A stretch of DNA of 23,752 nucleotides, from NCBI GenBank assembly GCA_016926735.1, contig JAFGOA010000087.1:1-23752 (forward strand), written 5' to 3'. The notes below the pieces were generated by a model. The model was not told where the DNA came from, did no database searches, and saw only the letters and a program-made list of their open reading frames with translations. Of the stretch, positions 3,311-21,215 are shown piece by piece. The stretch is from Promethearchaeota archaeon (GTDB taxonomy: Archaea; Asgardarchaeota; Lokiarchaeia; Sigyniarchaeales; SOKP01). Position 1 is the stretch's first letter; each line of letters begins with the position of its first letter. Position numbers and translations under genes: made by a program.

Positions 3311-6300
3311 ATGAAATCAATAAAAAGATCAAAAAGAATAACGCAAATATATATAATCTTATCTATTATCATAATATCAAATATATTCTTTATTTTATCC
3401 GATGGAATTCTCAATAATTCTCAGACTGATCTCAACAATAATGAACGTGAAGAGGATCCAAACCCATTATCAATATTAAAAACAAATGCTTTTGGTGAAG
3501 CTGATTGGTGGGATCATTCATATGAATATCGAATGTTGATCAATATAACAAACCCATATCCTTATGATATTGAAAATTATGGAGTTAATATTTCTTTTAC
3601 TTACAGTAATTTACTATCAGAAAATAAGATACAATCAGATTTAGATGATATTAGAATAATAGAAAATGATATTTTGAAAAATTATTATGTTAAAAAAGAT
3701 TATCCTAGTGTTGGAATTGCAACTGTTTGGTTTGATACAAATATTTTAGCAAATTCAATTGAGACAGATACATATCTCTATTTTGGTAATCCCTCTGCTG
3801 TTAACAATGCTTCTTCAGATAGTTCAGAAAGTTTTGGATGGATTAAAAATGGAGATTTTGAAATTGATATAAGTAGTGCTACAAATTTTGATCCTTTTGG
3901 TTGGTCCTTTAGTAATAACCCCGTTGATACTATCGTAGGACTCTCACAAGATTATCCTGATGAAAATACACCAATAGGAGACTTTGTAAATTGTTTAATC
4001 GATGATACAACTGGTGATCATAGAATTGGTAGCGGTGTTTATGCGTATAAATGGGGTGTTAATACAAATACACCAGCAGGTAGCTCTGTAAATGATTATG
4101 CTGGAACATTATTTTCATATCCTTTTAAAGTTCCTACAATAAATGGAGGAGATATATATTTAAAGCTTTTTAGGAATATAAGAACCTATCATTTTGAAAG
4201 AAAAACACTTAATCCTAAAAACGATGAAATTCAGAAAGATGGTTATTTTATTAGAGTCCTAAATGCATCAGATTATAATTCTGATCCAGATACTCATAGT
4301 GATGTAGATATTCAACAATCTAGTTATGAAAATTATCTTGAAGCGTATGATGGATTTGCAAGAAAAACAGCATTTTGGAGTAATGAAAAAGATCTAATAC
4401 AACTTCATGATGGAAGTAATTTTGTTCATGACGACGATATTATCAAAAATACAGGCAGTTCTCAAGAATTAACTGGATATATGAATCTTGATTTAACACA
4501 ATATATGGGTGAAACATTATTTTTCGAAATAGGAGCTTGGGGTGAAGAAACTACTGAAAAAAATGCTTTTTTCCAAGTAGATAGTTTAGAATTTAATTAT
4601 TTTATAAGTACTTCTCTAAATGAAATACAAGCACGTAGATCAGATATTACTGTTGTAGTGCGAGATATCGATGGTCAATTTGTTCCCAATGCAGAAGTTT
4701 ACCTAATAAATAATTCTGCTACAATTCCAATAGTAGATTCAAAAATATCTTCGACTGTGGATGGTTCTGCTGAATTTATAGGGATTTTAAATGGTATCTA
4801 TAATTTCACGGTGAATTATACAATGGGTTCTTATGAAGCAGAAGTATATAATAGTACAAAATTAAATAAAATTCTCTATGAATTTGATGGAAAAGAATTT
4901 ACAGTAGAAATCTATGTTAATTTATGGACAATTAATTTTGAATTTACTGATTCAGATGGAATCCCCTTTAACTATGGGTATTTAAAAATTAAAGATGATA
5001 AAGCAGGTACAACATTAAGAACAATTAATCTCGATTCAGAAGGTAAAGCTACTTTTAGATGGCTAAATACAGCATATTATTATTATGAACTCTATTACAA
5101 CAATGAAGATTATGCAGATAGTCCATTTTTACTGAATCAAAGTAATTATATTTATCGTTCGGATTATGAGAGTGTAAAAGAGCAACAAAAAGTTATTTCT
5201 GTTGTAAATAATAATCAAGCTCCTTCGGGTGAATCTTGGTATTTAATAAATCAATATGTCTATTCTAATGGATCTTCATCTTTTAATAATAGAAATATTA
5301 TTCAAGCAAATATTACTCTAACCGATATGACAGATCAGTTGGTTAATGTATCAATCTATTATATAGATGAGGACAATTCAACAGGAATAGGAGATGAAAA
5401 TCTGATATATTTTGAGGAAGATTATGGTTATGGTGTATATAACGATTTTATTTCTCTTGATTTTCTCTCAATTGAAAATACTAAATTAGAAAGTGAGAAT
5501 TTTAACGTTTATGGATTAAAGATTGTAATTTATGGCTTAAATAGCTCAACTTGTAATGGATTAGTTATGGTTGATTCAATTGAGACCTGTCATATTTTTA
5601 ATAAAACAGAATTATCAAGATTGAATATAAGAGTTATTAATATGAATGATTTATTCCCAGAGGGTCAACCATTAAATGCTCTCATTAGAGTTGAGGATGA
5701 TTCAGGAACACCTTTAATTAATTTAACATCAATTGCTGTGAGAGATGGTTATGCTTATGGAGAAAAAAATGCATATGATATCCCTTTTTGGTTCTTTAAA
5801 GATTATAATTACACTTTCAGAATAGATGTTCTTAATTATACAGATGTTGAATTCAACATCACATCTATAGGCGATTCTCGATGGATACCTACAGGAGCAA
5901 TACAGTCATATGAACACTATTTCAATTCGACTATGATGATAGAATTTAATGTTATTTTTGAAACAGAATTCAATATATCATCATATAATACAGCAATTTT
6001 CAATGTTACCCATACAAATCAAGTTCAATGGGGAGAGAATCTTTATTATAAATTGGATTTTATGTATACTGAAGATGATGGAGAAACATGGGAGTATGTG
6101 ACAAATCCTGGAGCAACATGCAGATTATATGTATATTTACAAGGAGAGTCAGAAATATTATTACAAAGGTCTTTTCAAAATAATGGAAATGGAACTTTTA
6201 CTTTAATATTAAACTCAAGTGTTTTATCGGCAGGATATGATTCTAAAACGTATACAATGATGATTACAGGGAATAAACCAGGATATCCTTTACCGAATGA

Positions 6301-12381: not shown

Positions 12382-13314
12382 TCATTTTTCTTGAGCTTCT
12401 ATCTCAGATAAAATAACTTTCCAGCTTTTATCAATTCCTTCTTGAAGTTTAATTAATTGTTGTTCGGAAACTGTTCGAAATCTTTTTTGTTTGGAAAGAT
12501 ATTCGATTAATGGAATTCTTTTACTTGGATCTACATATTTTTTACTTGCTTTTGAAATTGTTTTAACGCCATTTTCAACTTCATACAAAATCCATAATCC
12601 AGATTTTATAGCTAATCTTGCCATTTCAATAGTATCTTCAGCTCCATATCCCCATCCAGGAGGACAAGGAGCTAAGATGTGAATATATTTACATCCTTCG
12701 ATATCTTTGGCTTTTTTAAATTTTTCATATAAGTCTAATGGTTCAGATACACTACAAGTAGCTATATAAGGAATTTCATGTGCTTCCATAATTCGAGGTA
12801 GATTCTTTTTATATCGTTGTTTTCCGAATGGAGTTGTTGTAGTAATTGCAGAATGAGGTGTTGAGCTGCTTCTTTGAATTCCAGTATTCATATATGCTTC
12901 ATTATCATAACATACATATAAAATATTTGAATTTCTCTCAGCAGCACCACTTAGTGCTTGTATACCAATATCTGTTGTTCCACCATCCCCCGCAAATACT
13001 AATGTAGTCATTTTATCCCATCCTTGATTTGGAAATCTATATGCTTTAGCTTTAAATGCCGCATCAACTCCAGTAGCAGCAGAAGCCCCAGCAGCAAAAG
13101 CCATATTTATAAATGGGAAATTCGGAGCTGTTTTAGGCCATAGACCAATAACAACATTTAAACACGATGCAGGGGTAACTAAAGCTGTTTTAGGACCTAA
13201 AGCTTTCATTGCCCATCTTAGAGCAATTTCAAGACCACATCCAGCACAACATGAGTTACCTGGAAGAAAATATTCTTCACATGCTTCATTTAACGTTTCT
13301 TTTATTGTAACCAT
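12382..13314 (-). CDS. porB: pyruvate/2-ketoisovalerate:ferredoxin oxidoreductase beta subunit
   Basis: CAGCG, TPP-binding GDGG...YDNEAYMNTGIQRS and PCPPGW motifs. Confidence 0.92.
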   Translation of the reverse strand: MVTIKETLNEACEEYFLPGNSCCAGCGLEIALRWAMKALGPKTALVTPASCLNVVIGLWPKTAPNFPFINMAFAAGASAATGVDAAFKAKAYRFPNQGWDKMTTLVFAGDGGTTDIGIQALSGAAERNSNILYVCYDNEAYMNTGIQRSSSTPHSAITTTTPFGKQRYKKNLPRIMEAHEIPYIATCSVSEPLDLYEKFKKAKDIEGCKYIHILAPCPPGWGYGAEDTIEMARLAIKSGLWILYEVENGVKTISKASKKYVDPSKRIPLIEYLSKQKRFRTVSEQQLIKLQEGIDKSWKVILSEIEAQEK

Positions 13315-14571
13315 TTATTTCACCTCTAATATTCCATCCCAGAGAGTACCATGAATTAGATTATTTGGTAATTCTCCAGTTTCTTTTATTTTAATTAGGG
13401 TCTTTAATTCTTCTTTTTGTTGTACTAAAGTTACCTCGCGCCCTCCTATTCCTGCCATCATTGGTAATACTTTAGTAGTTATACCTGTATCATAAAGACA
13501 GGATAAAACATCACCACTTACAGGACCACCTGTGGGGGAGCCAAATGCAGTAGCCCGATCCATAACACCAAGAACTTCTACTTTTTTTGCTATTTTTCGA
13601 ATATCTTCTGTAGGAAATGGACGATAATGTCTTAATTTTACCATTCCAACTTTATATCCTTCTTCACGTAGTTCCTCAACTGCTTGTTCCATTTGTAAGG
13701 CTAAATCACCATAAATTATAATTCCAACATCTGCATCATCCATATTGAATTCTTCAATTAGTCCATTACCATAACTTCTTCCAAAGGTTTTCTCAAACTC
13801 TTTTGAAGCTATTTTTATTTTATCTTTAGTTTTCATAAGAGTATCTTGAATTTTCATCCTGAATTCACTATAAAATCCAGAAGGCATTATAAGATTGCCA
13901 TGCATCATAGGTCTTTCAGGATCAAGAAATATTTGAGGCCATCCCTTTTCATCAGGTAATGGTGGAAGGTATTGATCTACAAGATCTTGATCTTCAATTA
14001 TAACTGGTTTTGATGTATGAGAAAGAATAAAACCCCCATACGCAACAAATTTGGGTAATAATACATCATAATCCTCACAGACTTTATAAGACATTAAAAT
14101 TTCATCATATATTTCTTGATGCGTAGCACAAAACGCACTCATCCAACCAGTATCACGAGCATTTATTACATCTGAAAAGTCAGCCCATATATTCCAAGGA
14201 GGAGCTGCACCTCTGCTTGCAATAGCTGTGACAATAGGTAATCTTGTTCCAGCAGCCCAATGAATCATTTCATTCATATAAAATAAACCTTGTCCAGATG
14301 TAGCTGTAAAGGTTCTCGTTCCAGCTATACTCGCTCCAATAACAGAAGCCATTACTGAATGTTCACTCTCTACTTTAATATATTGAGTTCCTGGCATTTC
14401 TCCTCCATCAACAAATTCAGATAATTTTTCAACTACAGTAGTTTGGGGAGTAATAGGATATGCACTAATCATTTGGACTCTTGCAGATTTTGCAGCATAA
14501 GCAGCTGCAACATTCCCTTTAATAATTTTTGTTTCTCTTTTTTGTATAATATTATTCGTTTTACTTATCAT
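13315..14571 (-). CDS. porA: pyruvate/2-ketoisovalerate:ferredoxin oxidoreductase alpha subunit
   Basis: AYPITPQT, VESEHS, RTFTATSGQGL, RDTGW and RPFP motifs. ATG at 14571 (GTG at 14580 is the alternative). Confidence 0.92.
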   Translation of the reverse strand: MISKTNNIIQKRETKIIKGNVAAAYAAKSARVQMISAYPITPQTTVVEKLSEFVDGGEMPGTQYIKVESEHSVMASVIGASIAGTRTFTATSGQGLFYMNEMIHWAAGTRLPIVTAIASRGAAPPWNIWADFSDVINARDTGWMSAFCATHQEIYDEILMSYKVCEDYDVLLPKFVAYGGFILSHTSKPVIIEDQDLVDQYLPPLPDEKGWPQIFLDPERPMMHGNLIMPSGFYSEFRMKIQDTLMKTKDKIKIASKEFEKTFGRSYGNGLIEEFNMDDADVGIIIYGDLALQMEQAVEELREEGYKVGMVKLRHYRPFPTEDIRKIAKKVEVLGVMDRATAFGSPTGGPVSGDVLSCLYDTGITTKVLPMMAGIGGREVTLVQQKEELKTLIKIKETGELPNNLIHGTLWDGILEVK

Positions 14572-14908
14572 CTGATTCACTCTCTCTAATCATCTTAATT
14601 TTATGAGTTGGACACTCTTTTGCGCATATTCCACATCCTTTACAATATATTAAATCAATTTCAAAAGACCCATTCTCATTTTGTTTGATAACTCCTTCAG
14701 GACAATACATCCAACATAATCCGCATCTATTACATCCTTCAAGTATTACAGGTCGAAATGTTCTCCAATCTCCTGTAGTTCCAATACTTCCTTCAATTGG
14801 TAAGGAAATTGGAATTGGAGGTAGTTCTTTCCAATTTTTATATTCCTGAACTTTAGGTCGTTTTTCTTTAGATTCATTTATTTTTTTCCATTCTTCTGAT
14901 TCACTCAT
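14561..14908 (-). CDS. porD: 2-oxoacid:ferredoxin oxidoreductase delta subunit (2x[4Fe-4S])
   Basis: TGDWRTFRP, CNRCGLCWMYCP and CKGCGICAKECP. Confidence 0.92.
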   Translation of the reverse strand: MSESEEWKKINESKEKRPKVQEYKNWKELPPIPISLPIEGSIGTTGDWRTFRPVILEGCNRCGLCWMYCPEGVIKQNENGSFEIDLIYCKGCGICAKECPTHKIKMIRESESDDK

Positions 14909-14910
14909 GA

Positions 14911-15483
14911 TTACTCCTCCTTAACAGAATTGAAAGCATCTTTAGCTACTTTCATATTTTTTGATAATCTTTTTTCTCCAAATTCATCTCTTATGATGTT
15001 TTCCATAACTTCAAGATCATAAAATCCTGTTATTTTTCCAAATGCTCCAAGCATAGGAATATTTAAAATAGGACCACTTGACAACATAAAAGAATTATCA
15101 ATGCAAATCTTTGTTGCATCAACTAGATAAATCTTAATATTTTTGGGTAGATTAGTATTATCTATGGGTTTATTACTATTTATAAGGAGAATTGTTCCTT
15201 CCTTTATCGAATTTCGAATATTGGGAATTTCCAAAAGAGAGGTGTCAAATATTAACATATAATTAGGATTAACGACACTATCATATGTTTTTATCATTTT
15301 ATTTTTTGAAATTTTAGTAAATGCCCAAATAGGAGCACCTCTTCTCTCTGCACCGATAATAGGGATAGCAATAGCATCTTTAAACCCTTTATCATAAGCA
15401 AATTGAGCCAAAAGTTGACTTGCAGTTACAGCAGTTTGTCCTCCCCTCGCTGCAAATGAAATCTCTATTATTCCGTTTGCCAT
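14911..15483 (-). CDS. porG: 2-oxoacid:ferredoxin oxidoreductase gamma subunit
   Basis: EI.F.ARGGQ.AVTA, GAERRGAP, VDATKI and NIPMLGA motifs. ATG at 15483 preferred over TTG at 15498. Confidence 0.9.
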   Translation of the reverse strand: MANGIIEISFAARGGQTAVTASQLLAQFAYDKGFKDAIAIPIIGAERRGAPIWAFTKISKNKMIKTYDSVVNPNYMLIFDTSLLEIPNIRNSIKEGTILLINSNKPIDNTNLPKNIKIYLVDATKICIDNSFMLSSGPILNIPMLGAFGKITGFYDLEVMENIIRDEFGEKRLSKNMKVAKDAFNSVKEE

Positions 15484-15536
15484 CACTTTTTTTTCCAACT
15501 TTTTCTTTTTGATATTTGTTATTTTAATTCATCATT

Positions 15537-15576
15537 GCTACCAAAAAACTCAAAAAACCAGAAATTTTTTGGTCGC
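15537..15576 (-). promoter_or_regulatory. hairpin / U-tract element (candidate attenuator) between leader ORF and porG
   Basis: Sense strand reads GCGACCAAAAAATTTCTGGTTTTTTGAGTTTTTTGGTAGC. ACCAAAAAA pairs with TTTTTTGGT, there are two U6 tracts, and an alternative short ACCA/TGGT pairing exists. Confidence 0.55.
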
Positions 15577-15577
15577 T

Positions 15578-15682
15578 CTATAAAAGTAAAATTACTACTA
15601 CGTGTAATAATAAAATAATTACAGATAACAATAATACTGAGTTTAAAGTCACTAAACGATTGTTATTTGCTATTTTGTTCAT
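15578..15682 (-). CDS. Ile/Leu/Val-rich leader peptide (34 aa)
   Basis: Manually translated as MNKIANNNRLVTLNSVLLLSVIILLLHVVVILLL*. 21 of 34 residues are I/L/V. Same strand as, and just upstream of, porG. Confidence 0.65.
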   Translation of the reverse strand: MNKIANNNRLVTLNSVLLLSVIILLLHVVVILLL

Positions 15683-15976
15683 TGATAATTCAAACCTTAT
15701 ATTATTGTTAAAAAATATTAAAAGTCTAATACAATAAAATTCCGATTATATTAAAAATTTACTATAAAAGATTATAAATCGTAATTTTAAATCATAAAAA
15801 TAGTTGAAACAAAAAAAAAATCACTATTAATTATTTAAAGTAGATAATAATTTGAAATAAAGAAAAAAAGTGTAAAAATACAGATGTTCTTTCTTTATAA
15901 AAATTTTTAACTATTCTTTAACTTTTGATAAATAGTTGTAGCAATTTATGTTCAAAGAGTCTATGAAATTTAAATT

Positions 15977-16644: not shown

Positions 16645-17861
16645 ATGGTAGATAATATAAAACGGGTTGGAATTCTAACAGGGGGCGGAGATTCGATAAA
16701 GATTTTCCTTTACGATCCGCATACTGCCCTGGTTTAAATAGTGTTATTTATGGCATTATGTTAAAAGCCTTTGATTCGAATGTTAAATGTGTTGGTATTC
16801 TTAAAGGATGGAAAGGTTTTATGGAAAATCTTACAATACCCCTTAACATTGAAGAACATGATGATCTTCATACAATAGGAGGAACTTTTTTATATACTAG
16901 CAGAACAAATCCATTTGAAGAATTACAAAAAGTAACATCGAAAGAAGAGAAGGAAAAAATAAAGGAAGAAATAGCTAAAAAAATGGCAAAACAATTTGAA
17001 CTTTTAGATATTGATGCCTTAATTGCTATTGGAGGAGATGATACTCTTGGTGTTGCAAATTCCATGCATAAATACGGAAATGTTAACGTTGTAGGATGCC
17101 CTAAAACAATCGATAATGATTTAGCGGGAACAGATTATACTTTTGGTTTTTGGAGTGCAGTTCAATTAGCATCTAATACTATAGATAATCTTACAACAAC
17201 AGCACGATCTCATCAAAGAATATTTGTTGTTGAAATTATGGGAAGAGATGCAGGATTTTTAACAATGTATAGTGGAATTTCAGGTGGAGCAGATATTATT
17301 CTTGTTCCTGAGACTCCTTTTAGCTTTCAAAATCATATAGTCGATGTTTTAAAAAGAAGGGTTAATGCAGGTCATAAGTATCACATAATTGCTTGTTCTG
17401 AAGGCGCTTATCCTTCAGATGAATCGTTAGAAAAGGATTTTAAAACAATATCAAAAGAAACTATTAATCAATTGCCAAAAGATGTATTTGGTAATCCTTT
17501 GCTAACTAGACTAAATATATCACAAATTTTAACAAAAGAAATAAATCTTAGAGAGGACTTAAAAGCAGAATTTAAGAAAAATGATACAAATTTTGAATGT
17601 AGGGATGTTGTATTAGGCCATACAATGAGAGCAGGTACTCCAAACTCTTTTGATAGAATATTAGGATTACGATTAGGTCTTGCTGCAATGAAACTAGTAT
17701 TAAATAATGATTTTGGTAAAATGGTTGCTCTTAAAGGAACTAATATTAAGGGTGTTCCTCTTTCTGAAGGATCGAAAAAGAAATATATTAATCCAGATGA
17801 AGATGAAGTAGAATTAAGAAATCTTTTGGTTAAGACAAGATACAAATCAAGAGAAAATTAA
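16645..17861 (+). CDS. pfp: PfkA-family phosphofructokinase, PPi-type signature; join(16645..16690,16723..17861), 394 aa after removal of a 32-nt insertion
   Basis: Exon 1 gives MVDNIKRVGILTGGG(D) and exon 2 continues CPGLNSVIYGIMLK. Motifs GGDDT, PKTIDND, TFGF, VEIMGRDAG and LGHTMRAG are present. GGDD plus PKTIDND is the PPi-utilising signature. Confidence 0.88.
16691..16722 (+). other. candidate 32-nt bulge-helix-bulge (tRNA-type) intron in the pfp mRNA
   Basis: Central helix GCGG(16685-88)/CCGC(16717-20), 3-nt bulges AGA(16689-91) and AUA(16721-23), internal stem UCG-UAAAG/CUUUA-CGA. Cutting after the second nt of each bulge yields G|AC TGC CCT = D-C-P in frame. Confidence 0.75.
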
Positions 17862-17945: not shown

Positions 17946-18212
17946 TTATTGAATTATATCAATTATATTTTCAAAAATTTTTCCAAAAGTAATGATCTCA
18001 TTTATAGAAGCTCTAAACGCAGTAATATCGTTACTTTCAATGTAGAATTTAAGATTATTCTCTCCTTCTTTTTCCATAGTTAATTTAGATCTTTTAGAAT
18101 TAATTTTATTAAATTCAGGTAAAAAAGTATTGAAAGAGATATCTCTTATTTCTGATGTTTTAAAATAAAAGTTTACAGAGGATTTAATTGAATAATCATC
18201 TTGTTTATACAT
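17946..18212 (-). CDS. pcc1: KEOPS complex subunit Pcc1
   Basis: 88 aa with RSKL...LKFYIESNDITAFRASIN motif, at its canonical position after rpl37ae. Confidence 0.85.
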   Translation of the reverse strand: MYKQDDYSIKSSVNFYFKTSEIRDISFNTFLPEFNKINSKRSKLTMEKEGENNLKFYIESNDITAFRASINEIITFGKIFENIIDIIQ

Positions 18213-18502
18213 TATTTTTCAACTAGATCTAACTCTTTTTGTTTTCTTTTTGAAACTCTAAAAGATTCAGCTCCTCTTGGAGTTTCGATAGAATATGCTC
18301 CACCTGTAAATTTAGCTTTACATTTTTTACAATACCAAATGCCAGTTGATAATCTTTGAACTGATCCTTTAGTTTCGCATTTGGGGCATTTTATATTATT
18401 ACTTTTCATTTTCTCAAGGATCATACGAGTTCTTTTTCTTACTACTGATCCATATCTTGCTCCATATTTTCCTGTAATTCCGACCTTTTTAGTCTTACCC
18501 AT
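18212..18502 (-). CDS. rpl37ae: 50S ribosomal protein L37Ae (eL43)
   Basis: KKVGITGKYGARYG, CPKC, GIWYCKKC and FTGGAY. Confidence 0.97.
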   Translation of the reverse strand: MGKTKKVGITGKYGARYGSVVRKRTRMILEKMKSNNIKCPKCETKGSVQRLSTGIWYCKKCKAKFTGGAYSIETPRGAESFRVSKRKQKELDLVEK

Positions 18503-18643
18503 ATATAATCACATTTGATTCTTCTAAATTTACTTAAATAATTAAAAACAATATAAAATAAAAATTTTAGCCAAAAATATAAATAATATTAAGTTATTTT
18601 GGACAAAAGACTTATTCTATCATAAAATCAAAAAAAAAGATAA

Positions 18644-19471
18644 TTAGGTTGAATTCTTTACATATTGCCAAATGTTTAATTCTTCTCTTAGATTTTTTGC
18701 AATTTCTAATGCTTTTTCACCAAGCATTTTTATCTCTTCAATAGTAAAGGTTGCTATCCCACTTTTTTGGATACTTGTAATCTCTTTTTCTGTGACTGAT
18801 AATGTAATTCTTCCATCACTTACTAATTCTTCTGGAAGACTTGGATCTAAGAATATAATATCGTCAATCTTTCCAAAAGTAATTGCCAACGGAAGTTCAT
18901 TTATTAATTCTTTTCCATTGAGATATTTTCCAGTCCATCTGGGTACTTCATCAACCCATTCTCCTTTTGGAATACGGGACGATATTAAAGCCGCTAAGGC
19001 ACTCACACCTCCACAATCAATCATATTTCCTCCATGATTGATCACATACATATCAACAAACAATATATAAACTGCTTTTTCTTCTTTTATACATAATTTT
19101 TGAGTTTGTACACAATCAGCATGTCTTATTCCTCTATCAACAACTCTTGCTAATTCAATTGATTCTTCATCGGGAGGACCTCTCTCGAATAAGGGGGAAG
19201 CTAAAGGTAATAATTCAGCCATAATAGTGCAAACACCTTCATTTGGTAAATCGGGAAAAGGTTCACCAATATCATATTTTACTCCTGTGATTATTCTAGT
19301 ATCACCTAAAGTAACATCAGCAGACCCTTCTGCTGAAGATATTGTATCTGTTTTAATACAAAAAGGTCTATAATCCCAAAGTCCTCTTCCATCAATTCTT
19401 TCTCCTTTCTTTAAATTGTTAGTGATATAATTCTTTTCAATTGTTGATATTACTCGTTTAATATCCATCAT
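18644..19471 (-). CDS. rrp42: exosome complex component Rrp42
   Basis: RIDGRG, AEGSA.V.LG.T, PFPD.PNEG, GPPDEESIELARVVDRGIR. Confidence 0.96.
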   Translation of the reverse strand: MMDIKRVISTIEKNYITNNLKKGERIDGRGLWDYRPFCIKTDTISSAEGSADVTLGDTRIITGVKYDIGEPFPDLPNEGVCTIMAELLPLASPLFERGPPDEESIELARVVDRGIRHADCVQTQKLCIKEEKAVYILFVDMYVINHGGNMIDCGGVSALAALISSRIPKGEWVDEVPRWTGKYLNGKELINELPLAITFGKIDDIIFLDPSLPEELVSDGRITLSVTEKEITSIQKSGIATFTIEEIKMLGEKALEIAKNLREELNIWQYVKNST

Positions 19472-19488
19472 TTTTTATTTTTACCTCT

Positions 19489-20241
19489 TTATTGTTGTAT
19501 TCCCTCTTGAATCTGAATATACTTCGATTTTAATGCATCCAATTGCATGTGGTATATTTTTTCTAAAGCATCTTTTAACATATCGAGAGACTTAGTCATT
19601 TCTTCTTGATTCATTTTTCCATCAAATTGTAATAAAGATATTTCATTATTGAACCATGTTATAGCACAAGGCATATCAGAATCACCAGCTTTATCTTCAA
19701 TTCCAGATAAATCCGTTATAAGTTGTCCATCTACTTTTCCTACAGCACATGAAGTAACTAAACTTCGCATAGGTATGCCCGCATCTGCAAGTGCTAACGC
19801 TGCAACTGTGGTACTTGCGCATCGTGTACCTCCATCAGCATCAATTACTTCAATAAATATTTCAAAACTTGTTCCAGGGTATAGTTCAAGAAATAAAACA
19901 GGTTCGAGACATTCTGAAATAATCATAGAAATTTCTTTTTCTCTTCGACCAGGAGCAGGACGTTTTCTTTCAAATACAGAATATGTAGCCATCCTATAGA
20001 ATACTCTTAAAATCCCTTTGTCAGGTTTTGCTAAATGATGAGGATGTACCTCTCTAGGACCATACACTGACGCAAATATTTTATTGTTTCCCCATTCTAT
20101 ATAGGCACTTCCATCAGCATTCTTTATTACATTAACTTCCATTTTTATTGGACGTAGGTCTGTTAAACCTCTTCCATCTAAACGTAATCCATCATCACGC
20201 AATAACTTTTTGGGATATTCATCTTGAATTAATAATGTCAT
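19489..20241 (-). CDS. rrp41: exosome complex exonuclease Rrp41
   Basis: RLDGR, ADGSAYIEWGNNK, YGPRE, RREKEIS, ADGGTRCA and catalytic ED..GDSDMP. Confidence 0.97.
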   Translation of the reverse strand: MTLLIQDEYPKKLLRDDGLRLDGRGLTDLRPIKMEVNVIKNADGSAYIEWGNNKIFASVYGPREVHPHHLAKPDKGILRVFYRMATYSVFERKRPAPGRREKEISMIISECLEPVLFLELYPGTSFEIFIEVIDADGGTRCASTTVAALALADAGIPMRSLVTSCAVGKVDGQLITDLSGIEDKAGDSDMPCAITWFNNEISLLQFDGKMNQEEMTKSLDMLKDALEKIYHMQLDALKSKYIQIQEGIQQ

Positions 20242-21029
20242 TATTTAATACCTCTTCTTTCTATTTCATTTTTTATAAATCCTTCCATTCTATCTGTTAA
20301 ACCCGTTGTATGGGCCTCATTTTCTATTTTATAAATAGCTTCAATTAATAGTCGTTCATGTTCAATATCAAAACCTTTTAACCAAATACGACCATTTTGT
20401 GCGACAAAAATATTACAATTAGTTAAATTTTTCAACATTTTTATCATAGAACCATTACGTCCTATTATTCTTGGCACTTTTTGAGAATCAATTTGTATAA
20501 TTATTCCCCCCATCTTTTTACCAAGATATTTACCAGCTAAGGTTATTTCAGGAGAATTTAATCGATCTGCTGCAATTACTTTTCCAATAATTGCATCACC
20601 TATAAAAAGCTTTTCAGGAATTTCTGATTCTCTTGAATTTCCACGCATCCTTATCTTAGGATTCCTTTTTACAGTATTTTTAATCTTAAGAATTCCTGAA
20701 TATTTTGCATTAATATCACAAACATATTTTACGGGGTTCTTATCTAAGACGATCCCGATTATTTTATCTCCAATGTGGGGGGTATAAAAACCTCTTAATG
20801 GTATTACATTAATATAATTCTTTTTAATTTGTTTCAAACCAATTATAACAGAGATAATCTTATCTCCTTTTTTATTTAAGATCGCACCTCTACCAGGTAT
20901 ATAATTTTCTGTATCATCAGTTAATACTTCACCCGGTGCAACAATTTCACGTAGAGTTTCTTCATCTTCAAACTCATCATTTTGTTCTTGCTCTTCCTCT
21001 TCTTGTTCAAGTTCTTCGTTATTTTCCAT
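20241..21029 (-). CDS. rrp4: exosome RNA-binding cap protein Rrp4 (S1+KH)
   Basis: IV.PGEVL, VIPLRG.Y.P..GD.IIG, KVPRIIGRNGSMI, QNGRIW and AHTTGLT. ATG at 21029, with an acidic N-terminal extension. Confidence 0.95.
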   Translation of the reverse strand: MENNEELEQEEEEQEQNDEFEDEETLREIVAPGEVLTDDTENYIPGRGAILNKKGDKIISVIIGLKQIKKNYINVIPLRGFYTPHIGDKIIGIVLDKNPVKYVCDINAKYSGILKIKNTVKRNPKIRMRGNSRESEIPEKLFIGDAIIGKVIAADRLNSPEITLAGKYLGKKMGGIIIQIDSQKVPRIIGRNGSMIKMLKNLTNCNIFVAQNGRIWLKGFDIEHERLLIEAIYKIENEAHTTGLTDRMEGFIKNEIERRGIK

Positions 21030-21215
21030 AAAAATACACAATCATAAAATAAATAATAATAAACAAAATTTTCTTTTTTTTTCAAACTTAAAATAATTAA
21101 TCATTGACATAATAAAATTTTAATGAAATTTGGAGTTAAGAATCAACTTTTATTTCTAAAAAATCTAAAGGAAAAAATTTTTGAGAAAATTCAAAAATTT
21201 TATTTTTTTTTTATT

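Follow-up and report, generated by a model that had tools for sequence, protein, structure and literature searches.

A conserved hairpin with embedded U-tracts at the stop codon of an Ile/Leu/Val-rich leader reading frame in Asgard archaea, a possible archaeal attenuator

Introduction

Leader-peptide attenuation is a textbook bacterial mechanism that needs coupled transcription and translation. In the enterobacterial ilvL-ilvGMEDA, ivbL-ilvBN and leuL-leuABCD systems the 5' leader carries a short translated open reading frame (ORF) packed with Ile, Leu and Val codons, the placement of its stop codon makes a terminating ribosome cover the first arm of the helix that follows, and sister leaders with different codon mixes precede different operons. 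In E. coli pyrBI and tna (with its leader tnaC) no antiterminator helix is required, and termination depends on where the leading ribosome physically stands relative to one downstream signal, namely a hairpin in pyrBI and, in tna, a Rho loading site adjacent to the stop codon. Here we describe a leader that shares the layout of the first group, and would share the logic of the second, in an Asgard archaeon, the Asgard archaea being the closest prokaryotic relatives of eukaryotes. It consists of an Ile/Leu/Val-rich mini-ORF followed at its stop codon by a hairpin containing U-tracts, and lies upstream of a 2-oxoacid:ferredoxin oxidoreductase (por-type) operon in Promethearchaeota archaeon (GCA_016926735.1, contig JAFGOA010000087.1, positions 1 to 23,752). 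We refer to this whole stretch of 23,752 nucleotides as the window, and to the genome from which it comes, which is 99.3% complete, as the window genome.

We know of no use of hairpin terminators by the archaeal RNA polymerase. One report on Methanococcus describes aCPSF1 as binding U-tracts via its KH domains, with two U4 tracts being approximately the minimum for good binding, and a lokiarchaeal aCPSF1 orthologue as able to substitute for the native factor (PMC8716108). We found no literature report of archaeal leader-peptide attenuation, the matches listed being bacterial or general as judged from their titles and abstracts, and among the matches listed none that named Asgard archaea in connection with a leader peptide or attenuator; the hairpin behind the Ile/Leu/Val leader probably allows the ribosome to signal how well these amino acids are supplied, which would be a bacterial style of control that is not yet described for archaea.

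Results

A hairpin begins one base past the leader stop codon

The leader ORF ends with a TAG at 15580-15578 on the complementary strand and the hairpin sequence begins one base later, extending from 15576 to 15537; the hairpin that an earlier note on this DNA had reported here, with a 5' arm pairing to the distal of two U6 tracts, is confirmed (Table 1). It folds with 12 consecutive pairs together with two closing G-C pairs at -11.1 kcal/mol, compared to a mean of -5.24 kcal/mol for shuffled sequences (z -2.75), and equally good folds were seen in 4 of 200 shuffles. The leader as a whole (15530-15725, complementary strand) is also unusually structured, with a predicted energy of -43.8 kcal/mol (z -4.52) that none of 200 shuffles equaled, and its minimum free energy (MFE) fold contains three elements: a helix designated P1, a middle hairpin, and the post-stop hairpin.

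Table 1. Features of the leader and the operon downstream; positions are those of the window.
Feature	Position	Strand	Remarks
Post-stop hairpin	15537..15576	-	5' arm 15576-15562, loop 15561-15552, 3' arm 15551-15537
Proximal U6 tract	15552..15557	-	Unpaired, in the 10-nt hairpin loop
Distal U6 tract	15543..15548	-	Paired with the A6 run of the 5' arm
Leader mini-ORF, 34 codons + TAG: MNKIANNNRLVTLNSVLLLSVIILLLHVVVILLL	15578..15682	-	Frame kept in 37/37 leaders
P1 helix, 5' strand	15689..15710	-	In the 5' untranslated region; the conserved AAAGUUGGA motif is part of it, here as AAGGUUUGAA, 5-8 nt ahead of the start codon
P1 helix, 3' strand	15626..15647	-	Within the ORF, codons ~12-19; alignment A4 and MFE fold
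Middle hairpin	15579..15625	-	Last third of the ORF; MFE fold; outer stem takes in the last sense codon and part of the stop
Promoter-like BRE/TATA element	15744..15766	-	A-rich, then TTTTTAAT; ~65-85 nt upstream of the leader start codon
A-rich spacer	15487..15514	-	AUCAAAAAG motif and second AAAGUUGGA copy; directly before the gamma-subunit start; sequence kept across genera
2-oxoacid:ferredoxin oxidoreductase operon	12382..15486	-	Four genes; pyruvate/2-ketoisovalerate family (NCBIfam)
Gamma subunit	14911-15483/15486	-	
Delta subunit	14561-14908	-	
Alpha subunit	13315-14580	-	
Beta subunit	12382-13314	-	

The hairpin and its position are conserved

Among orthologous gamma-subunit loci from 40 relatives, the same arrangement could be recognized by eye in 14 of 24 same-family loci. 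In a MAFFT alignment of the 16 leaders collected in this first round, all of which contain the hairpin, 89.6% of the stem cells are paired compared to 34-54% when the partner strand is slid, and 4 of the 13 pairs have changed on both sides. A covariance model built on the ORF tail and the hairpin matches 32 of 135 genomes of one Promethearchaeota family, representing 10 of its 13 genera, and none of 19 genomes in three other families of the order. The leader statistics below refer to 37 distinct leaders from 31 genomes of 10 genera. In these, 92.2% of stem cells are paired and 6 of 13 pairs have changed on both sides, although this alignment was fitted to the covariance model and thus favors the structure; compensatory change of the kind that the note proposed to look for is present in both sets. 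Stem energies range from -11.4 to -21.9 kcal/mol (mean -15.5), and the hairpins vary from 36 to 48 nt in length with variable loops. The stem begins 0-3 nt past the stop codon in 33 of 37 leaders, so that a ribosome at or near the stop must cover the A-rich 5' arm, as had been suggested for the window alone.

U-runs are a general feature of the loop and 3' arm, the longest being at least 5 nt in 28 of the 37 leaders, exactly 4 nt in seven and shorter in two, such that 35 have a run of four or more. Beyond the stem, the next 25 nt contain no U-run longer than two in 30 of 37 leaders, and because the U-runs lie inside the stem and loop with none following, this is not a terminator of the bacterial intrinsic type. 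Runs of T5 or longer are enriched four- to five-fold just past the stops of 2181 long ORFs of the window genome, 52% of which have one within 60 nt of the stop compared to 18% of windows placed inside genes, and such runs are likely to be the terminator signal of this genome; hairpins past ordinary gene stops are weak. An aCPSF1/FttA orthologue is encoded (TIGR03675, 876.8 bits against a cut-off of 580.2). Both observations agree with the archaeal U-tract and aCPSF1/FttA setting assumed in the note.

Several variant forms were observed. In four loci of genus g2 a hairpin at the corresponding position is preceded, at a distance of about 45 nt, by the promoter-like element, and no start codon intervenes; the U-runs of these ORF-less forms are no longer than four and their hairpin sequences have diverged. 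These forms would fit a hairpin that protects rather than terminates. A separate case is locus L072 (G024:C148, ~3450-3760), where a complete leader is followed by the start codon and five codons of the gamma subunit and then by unrelated repetitive sequence; the same genome has an intact por orthologue (L017) on another contig that lacks the leader, and the L072 arrangement may reflect a rearrangement or an assembly break.

No conserved competing helix was identified

The earlier note also considered a short ACCA/UGGU hairpin as an alternative state, and this we reject; its energy is -1.9 kcal/mol, its equilibrium pair probability is about 1e-6, and just 5 of 37 leaders have the UGGU loop copy. 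On alignment A3 no competing helix was found by RNAalifold, which called only the seven G/C-containing pairs of the post-stop stem. When the first 16 nt after the last sense codon are constrained as unpaired, much as the note had asked, the U-rich 3' arm does refold onto the A-rich spacer, but shuffled spacers pair with it just as well (mean z +0.11, with 2 of 37 leaders below -1.64); base composition suffices to account for it, and a specific pairing of the bacterial 3:4 type is not supported. With no conserved competing helix found, the ribosome is the only evident competitor of the hairpin. Rfam has no match at its gathering score in the window, and none up to E = 1 in 15400-15850, and nhmmer searches of the window genome with two profiles for other copies of the leader matched this locus only.

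The mini-ORF is a conserved reading frame rich in Ile, Leu and Val codons

The reading frame of the mini-ORF is kept in all 37 leaders, which supports the Ile/Leu/Val-rich leader assumed in the note. Its length varies from 27 to 38 codons, with ATG (33 leaders), TTG (3) or GTG (1) as start, and a structural anchor lies 37, 40, 43, 46 or 49 nt from the start, in every case 1 mod 3 (37/37), so that indels occur only in threes. Counts of stop codons in frames 0, +1 and +2 are 0, 231 and 58 respectively. The mini-ORF is a kept frame and is predicted to be translated.

About 80% of the last 20 codons of the leaders specify Ile, Leu or Val, as do 17 of the last 20 in the window leader. In por-type leaders these 20 residues comprise 38% Leu, 21% Val, 19% Ile and 3% Phe. 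Although the length and hydrophobicity of the peptide fit a single-pass membrane segment, its composition deviates from that of the 1330 membrane-like 20-mers encoded by the genome, which contain 28.6% Ile, 19.9% Leu, 12.7% Phe and 7.3% Val; only 0.7% of these have at least 16 Ile, Leu or Val residues and none has 17. The composition differs in Val (21-25% in leaders versus 7.3%), Phe (3% versus 12.7%) and, in the leaders of a second operon encoding a mutase (see below), Ile (2% versus 28.6%). Codon choice is also skewed, with GUA used for 122 of 132 Val codons in por leaders and 27 of 30 in mutase leaders compared to 39% in the genome, and UUA for 75% of Leu codons compared to 53%.

Two further helices involve the ORF itself. 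P1 pairs the 5' untranslated region with codons ~11-19 across the leaders; in alignment A4 76.8% of its cells are paired, compared to 38-50% when slid, 16 of its 22 pairs have changed on both sides, and it is also predicted by the MFE fold of the window leader. The last 18 codons fold better than their shuffles (mean z -1.84, with 20 of 37 leaders below -1.64), which explains part of the GUA bias, and in the middle hairpin GUA repeats pair with upstream UAC repeats. RNAalifold did not call the middle hairpin on alignment A3.

A sister leader precedes a mutase operon

The covariance model identified a second leader locus in six genomes of two genera. Promoter-like element, P1, mini-ORF and hairpin all recur there, the arms having changed in a compensatory way, and the locus precedes an operon encoding the large subunit of an acyl-CoA mutase, a B12-binding subunit and a MeaB-type GTPase. 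The best solved relative of the large subunit is 2-hydroxyisobutyryl-CoA mutase (1e-170), followed by human methylmalonyl-CoA mutase (1e-142), and in it Phe and Gln take the place of the Tyr and Arg found in methylmalonyl-CoA mutase. We take this pair of residues to be a signature of isobutyryl-CoA mutase (ICM), for which we found no confirmation in print, and by these two residues the operon appears to be ICM-like. The tails of the mutase leaders are rich in Leu and Val and contain only two Ile among 120 residues, and wherever a genome carries the two kinds (six of six), Ile is more numerous in its por leader than in its mutase leader. At the mutase operon of the window genome itself (G000:C41:60764-60900, complementary strand) we observed a promoter-like element of the AAATTTTTAAT type and no leader ORF or hairpin.

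Leaders are commonest in genera that lack ilvC

We found no ilvC, ilvD or acetolactate synthase in the window genome. It does have a LeuA-like gene (453.8 bits; cut-off 484.75), an isopropylmalate isomerase (484.7 bits; cut-off 410), a LeuB-like gene (339.3 bits; cut-off 353.2) whose neighborhood contains no informative genes, and two IlvE-like genes. Within the family, strong ilvC matches (E of 1e-50 or less) were counted by hand and set beside the leader matches for each genus (Table 2), and the leader is commonest in genera without ilvC. The six genera counted as lacking a strong ilvC match all have the leader, and of the seven counted as having ilvC, five are without it.

Table 2. Strong ilvC matches and leader matches by genus (genomes with a match/genomes in the genus).
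Genus	Strong ilvC	Leader	Remarks
g1	0/4	3/4	
g5	0/10	10/10	
g6	1/6	6/6	
g13	0/1	1/1	
g10	0/1	1/1	
g4	0/1	1/1	
g3	5/7	6/7	
g9	2/2	2/2	
g8	5/5	0/5	
g7	1/1	0/1	
g12	1/1	0/1	
g11	37/54	1/54	The lone leader genome has no strong ilvC match
g2	23/42	1/42	The lone match is an ORF-less form

The operon and its surroundings

The four genes downstream of the leader encode the only four-subunit oxidoreductase of this type that we found in the window genome. Equivalog models for the pyruvate (POR) and 2-ketoisovalerate (VOR) enzymes give near-equal scores on the operon proteins, all below cut-off, and do not decide between them. Upstream of the leader is a divergently transcribed ZPR1-like gene. A sequence resembling a transcription factor B recognition element (BRE) and TATA box can be followed by eye through the upstream regions of the orthologues, and again ahead of the mutase-type leaders, and is a putative promoter. 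For a second promoter, between the hairpin and the por genes, a scan of k-mer positions in 2073 upstream regions of the genome gave no usable model. The G+C content of the window is about 27%, and its nearest named relatives are metagenome-assembled genomes of Promethearchaeota.

Other observations were made in passing. A motif resembling AAAGUUGGA occurs at 15691-15699 and 15493-15501 on the complementary strand, 5-8 nt ahead of the start codons of both the leader and the gamma subunit, and different genera share it. A role as a general ribosome-binding site was rejected, since the enriched pre-start words of the genome are of the canonical GGAGGUGAU type and GTTGG is not enriched. On the forward strand a phosphofructokinase (PFK) gene (~16645-16760) contains a 32-nt insert (~16693-16724), not a multiple of three, between its GGGD and CPGLN motifs; an insert of 32 nt is present at the same site in a same-genus locus and one of 34 nt with conserved ends in several other genera, and most orthologues lack it. 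The insert resembles a short intron of an archaeal mRNA, perhaps one of the bulge-helix-bulge type, more than it does the mark of a broken gene. Downstream of PFK, at 18212-21041 on the complementary strand, are ORFs whose translations resemble, by eye, ribosomal protein L37Ae and exosome subunits.

Discussion

We consider it fairly probable that this leader is an amino-acid sensor of some kind that is read by the ribosome. The best explanation that we can offer is a more tentative one, in which the ribosome would sense the supply of branched-chain aminoacyl-tRNAs and act upon U-tracts embedded in a hairpin. Within a leader some 190 nt long the hairpin would be the 3' element, the sequence of parts being the promoter, P1, the mini-ORF, the hairpin at its stop codon, the A-rich spacer and the por-type operon. 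When Ile, Leu and Val are plentiful the leading ribosome would be at the last codons or the stop as the polymerase crosses the U-tracts, covering the A-rich 5' arm; the U-tracts would then be single-stranded and open to aCPSF1/FttA, transcription would end, and the operon would be off. When these amino acids are scarce the ribosome would stall upstream on their codons, the hairpin would form and sequester a U-tract, and read-through would turn the operon on. The complete chain including this direction, with the operon on under scarcity, is held more cautiously still.

The direction from stalling to read-through is favored because the hairpin could plausibly keep a U-tract out of reach of aCPSF1, which it could not do with a ribosome standing at the stop. 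It would fit both the geometry of the hairpin and an anabolic role for the enzymes, which could make the 2-oxoacids of Val, Leu and Ile from branched acyl-CoAs by reductive carboxylation. That the operon should be on under scarcity also fits with the occurrence of the leader in lineages without the acetolactate pathway, with a mutase leader composed of Val and Leu codons, and with ORF-less forms that keep the hairpin. In its most extended version this would be an attenuator native to archaea and built on archaeal termination, controlling an alternative, ferredoxin-dependent route to branched-chain 2-oxoacids (a VOR-type oxidoreductase with an isobutyryl-CoA-type mutase) in those Asgard lineages from which the acetolactate pathway has been lost, in which one hairpin at the stop codon hides or exposes U-tracts for aCPSF1/FttA and the codon mix matches what each enzyme supplies, Ile, Leu and Val for the oxidoreductase and Val and Leu for the mutase. 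We consider this version unlikely.

The same sensor could operate with the opposite logic, which we regard as unlikely. Cultured relatives are known to ferment amino acids, and both the 2-oxoacid oxidoreductases and an isobutyryl-CoA-type mutase would suit the catabolism of Val; an auxotroph without ilvB, ilvC and ilvD would benefit from closing catabolism when these amino acids are scarce. Plentiful Ile, Leu and Val tRNAs would then allow the ribosome to remain coupled as far as the stop, keeping FttA off and the catabolic operons on, whereas an early stall would leave an uncoupled polymerase on which FttA loads, with termination at the U-tracts, a polarity-type outcome like that in Rho-dependent leaders. 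A steric exclusion of this kind, in which the coupled ribosome competes with FttA, is a proposal in the literature and not a demonstrated effect (PMC11616081). However, under this logic the conserved hairpin would form in both states and so has no discriminating role, the ORF-less relatives keep a promoter and a hairpin with no ribosome to shield the polymerase, and the mutase leaders are Leu-rich as well as Val-rich, which is better suited to synthesis since Leu derives from 2-oxoisovalerate. Quite unlikely, in our view, is that nothing is sensed, and that the product of the mini-ORF is a small hydrophobic peptide that inserts into the membrane and has its own function, the hairpin being an ordinary stabilizer or partial terminator of the mRNA. 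A polar N-terminus followed by about 20 hydrophobic residues is tail-anchor-like, and U-tracts past a stop are the usual gene end in the window genome, but its ordinary terminators lack strong hairpins, and the leader peptides have three times more Val and four times less Phe than its membrane-like segments, with Ile nearly absent from the mutase copies. Moreover, conservation is at the nucleotide level, including helices within the ORF, and the cassette has been duplicated, promoter and hairpin included, ahead of a second operon for a cytoplasmic enzyme.

Two explanations dispense with the ORF altogether. The hairpin may be a structure of the 5' untranslated region that protects the mRNA or binds a protein, its closeness to the stop codon being incidental; relatives in one genus keep a hairpin here after loss of the ORF, and the entire leader is unusually structured, as the shuffles indicate. 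This is very unlikely given that the distance from stop to stem is held within 0-3 nt in nearly all of the leaders despite variation in ORF length by as many as eleven codons, and that the hairpins of the ORF-less forms have diverged in sequence. Alternatively, the inverted repeat may be bound as DNA by a dimeric transcription factor, or be a palindrome that arose by chance. It is nearly perfect and lies between the promoter-like element and the operon, and A/T inverted repeats are common in AT-rich DNA, but G-U pairs are tolerated on the leader strand, the variation in hairpin length and loops is unsuited to a fixed operator with two half-sites, and conservation across 10 genera rules out chance, such that we judge this explanation to be extremely improbable.

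Several observations weigh against the sensing of branched-chain aminoacyl-tRNA with read-through under scarcity. The proposal in the note that the hairpin masks the U-tracts stands in part, in that the distal U6 is paired, but only one of the two U6 tracts of the window is masked; the proximal one stays in the loop and masking is thus only partial, and two mutase leaders retain the hairpin without any U4 run. FttA is reported to receive RNA directly from the exit channel of the polymerase (PMC11616081), and a hairpin that forms later may therefore be too late. The GUA bias and the middle hairpin indicate that RNA structure also shapes the codons, and part of the Ile/Leu/Val content may be structural for this reason. 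The mutase operon of the window genome has no leader and only a short, plain upstream region. The association with ilvC may rest on just one or two events, since related genomes are not independent, and the leader-bearing genera may form one clade. The enzyme may be a plain pyruvate:ferredoxin oxidoreductase, and a catabolic role would favor the opposite logic. Overall, the enrichment in Ile, Leu and Val codons is clear, and the tie of the enzymes to these amino acids is plausible, POR and VOR being indistinct and the mutase ICM-like by two residues.

If the sensor is as we propose, the archaeal transcription machinery reads the position of the ribosome, and the leader offers a direct in vivo handle on how transcription is coupled to translation in archaea and on signal recognition by aCPSF1/FttA. 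It is also a pointer to how branched-chain amino acids are managed without the standard pathway.

The leader can be compared with described bacterial attenuators and archaeal terminators. The likeness to ilvL, ivbL and leuL extends to the codon-packed ORF, the placement of the stop codon and the sister leaders of different codon mix; it differs in having no conserved alternative 1:2, 2:3 and 3:4 helices and no U-run after the stem, as anticipated in the note, which had contrasted it with the bacterial 1-2-3-4 design, and in the genes that follow, which encode a 2-oxoacid:ferredoxin oxidoreductase and an acyl-CoA mutase rather than ilv or leu functions. Dependence on ribosome position beside a single signal would ally it with pyrBI and tna, although these sense UTP-dependent pausing or free tryptophan rather than hungry codons and use bacterial factors (an intrinsic terminator or Rho). 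With archaeal aCPSF1/FttA terminators, as described in PMC8716108 and PMC11616081, it shares two U6 tracts within 40 nt past a stop codon and a genome that encodes the factor. Those terminators need no hairpin and sit at gene ends, whereas here the U-tract makes up one side of a conserved stem (-11 to -22 kcal/mol) and the signal lies inside a 5' leader.

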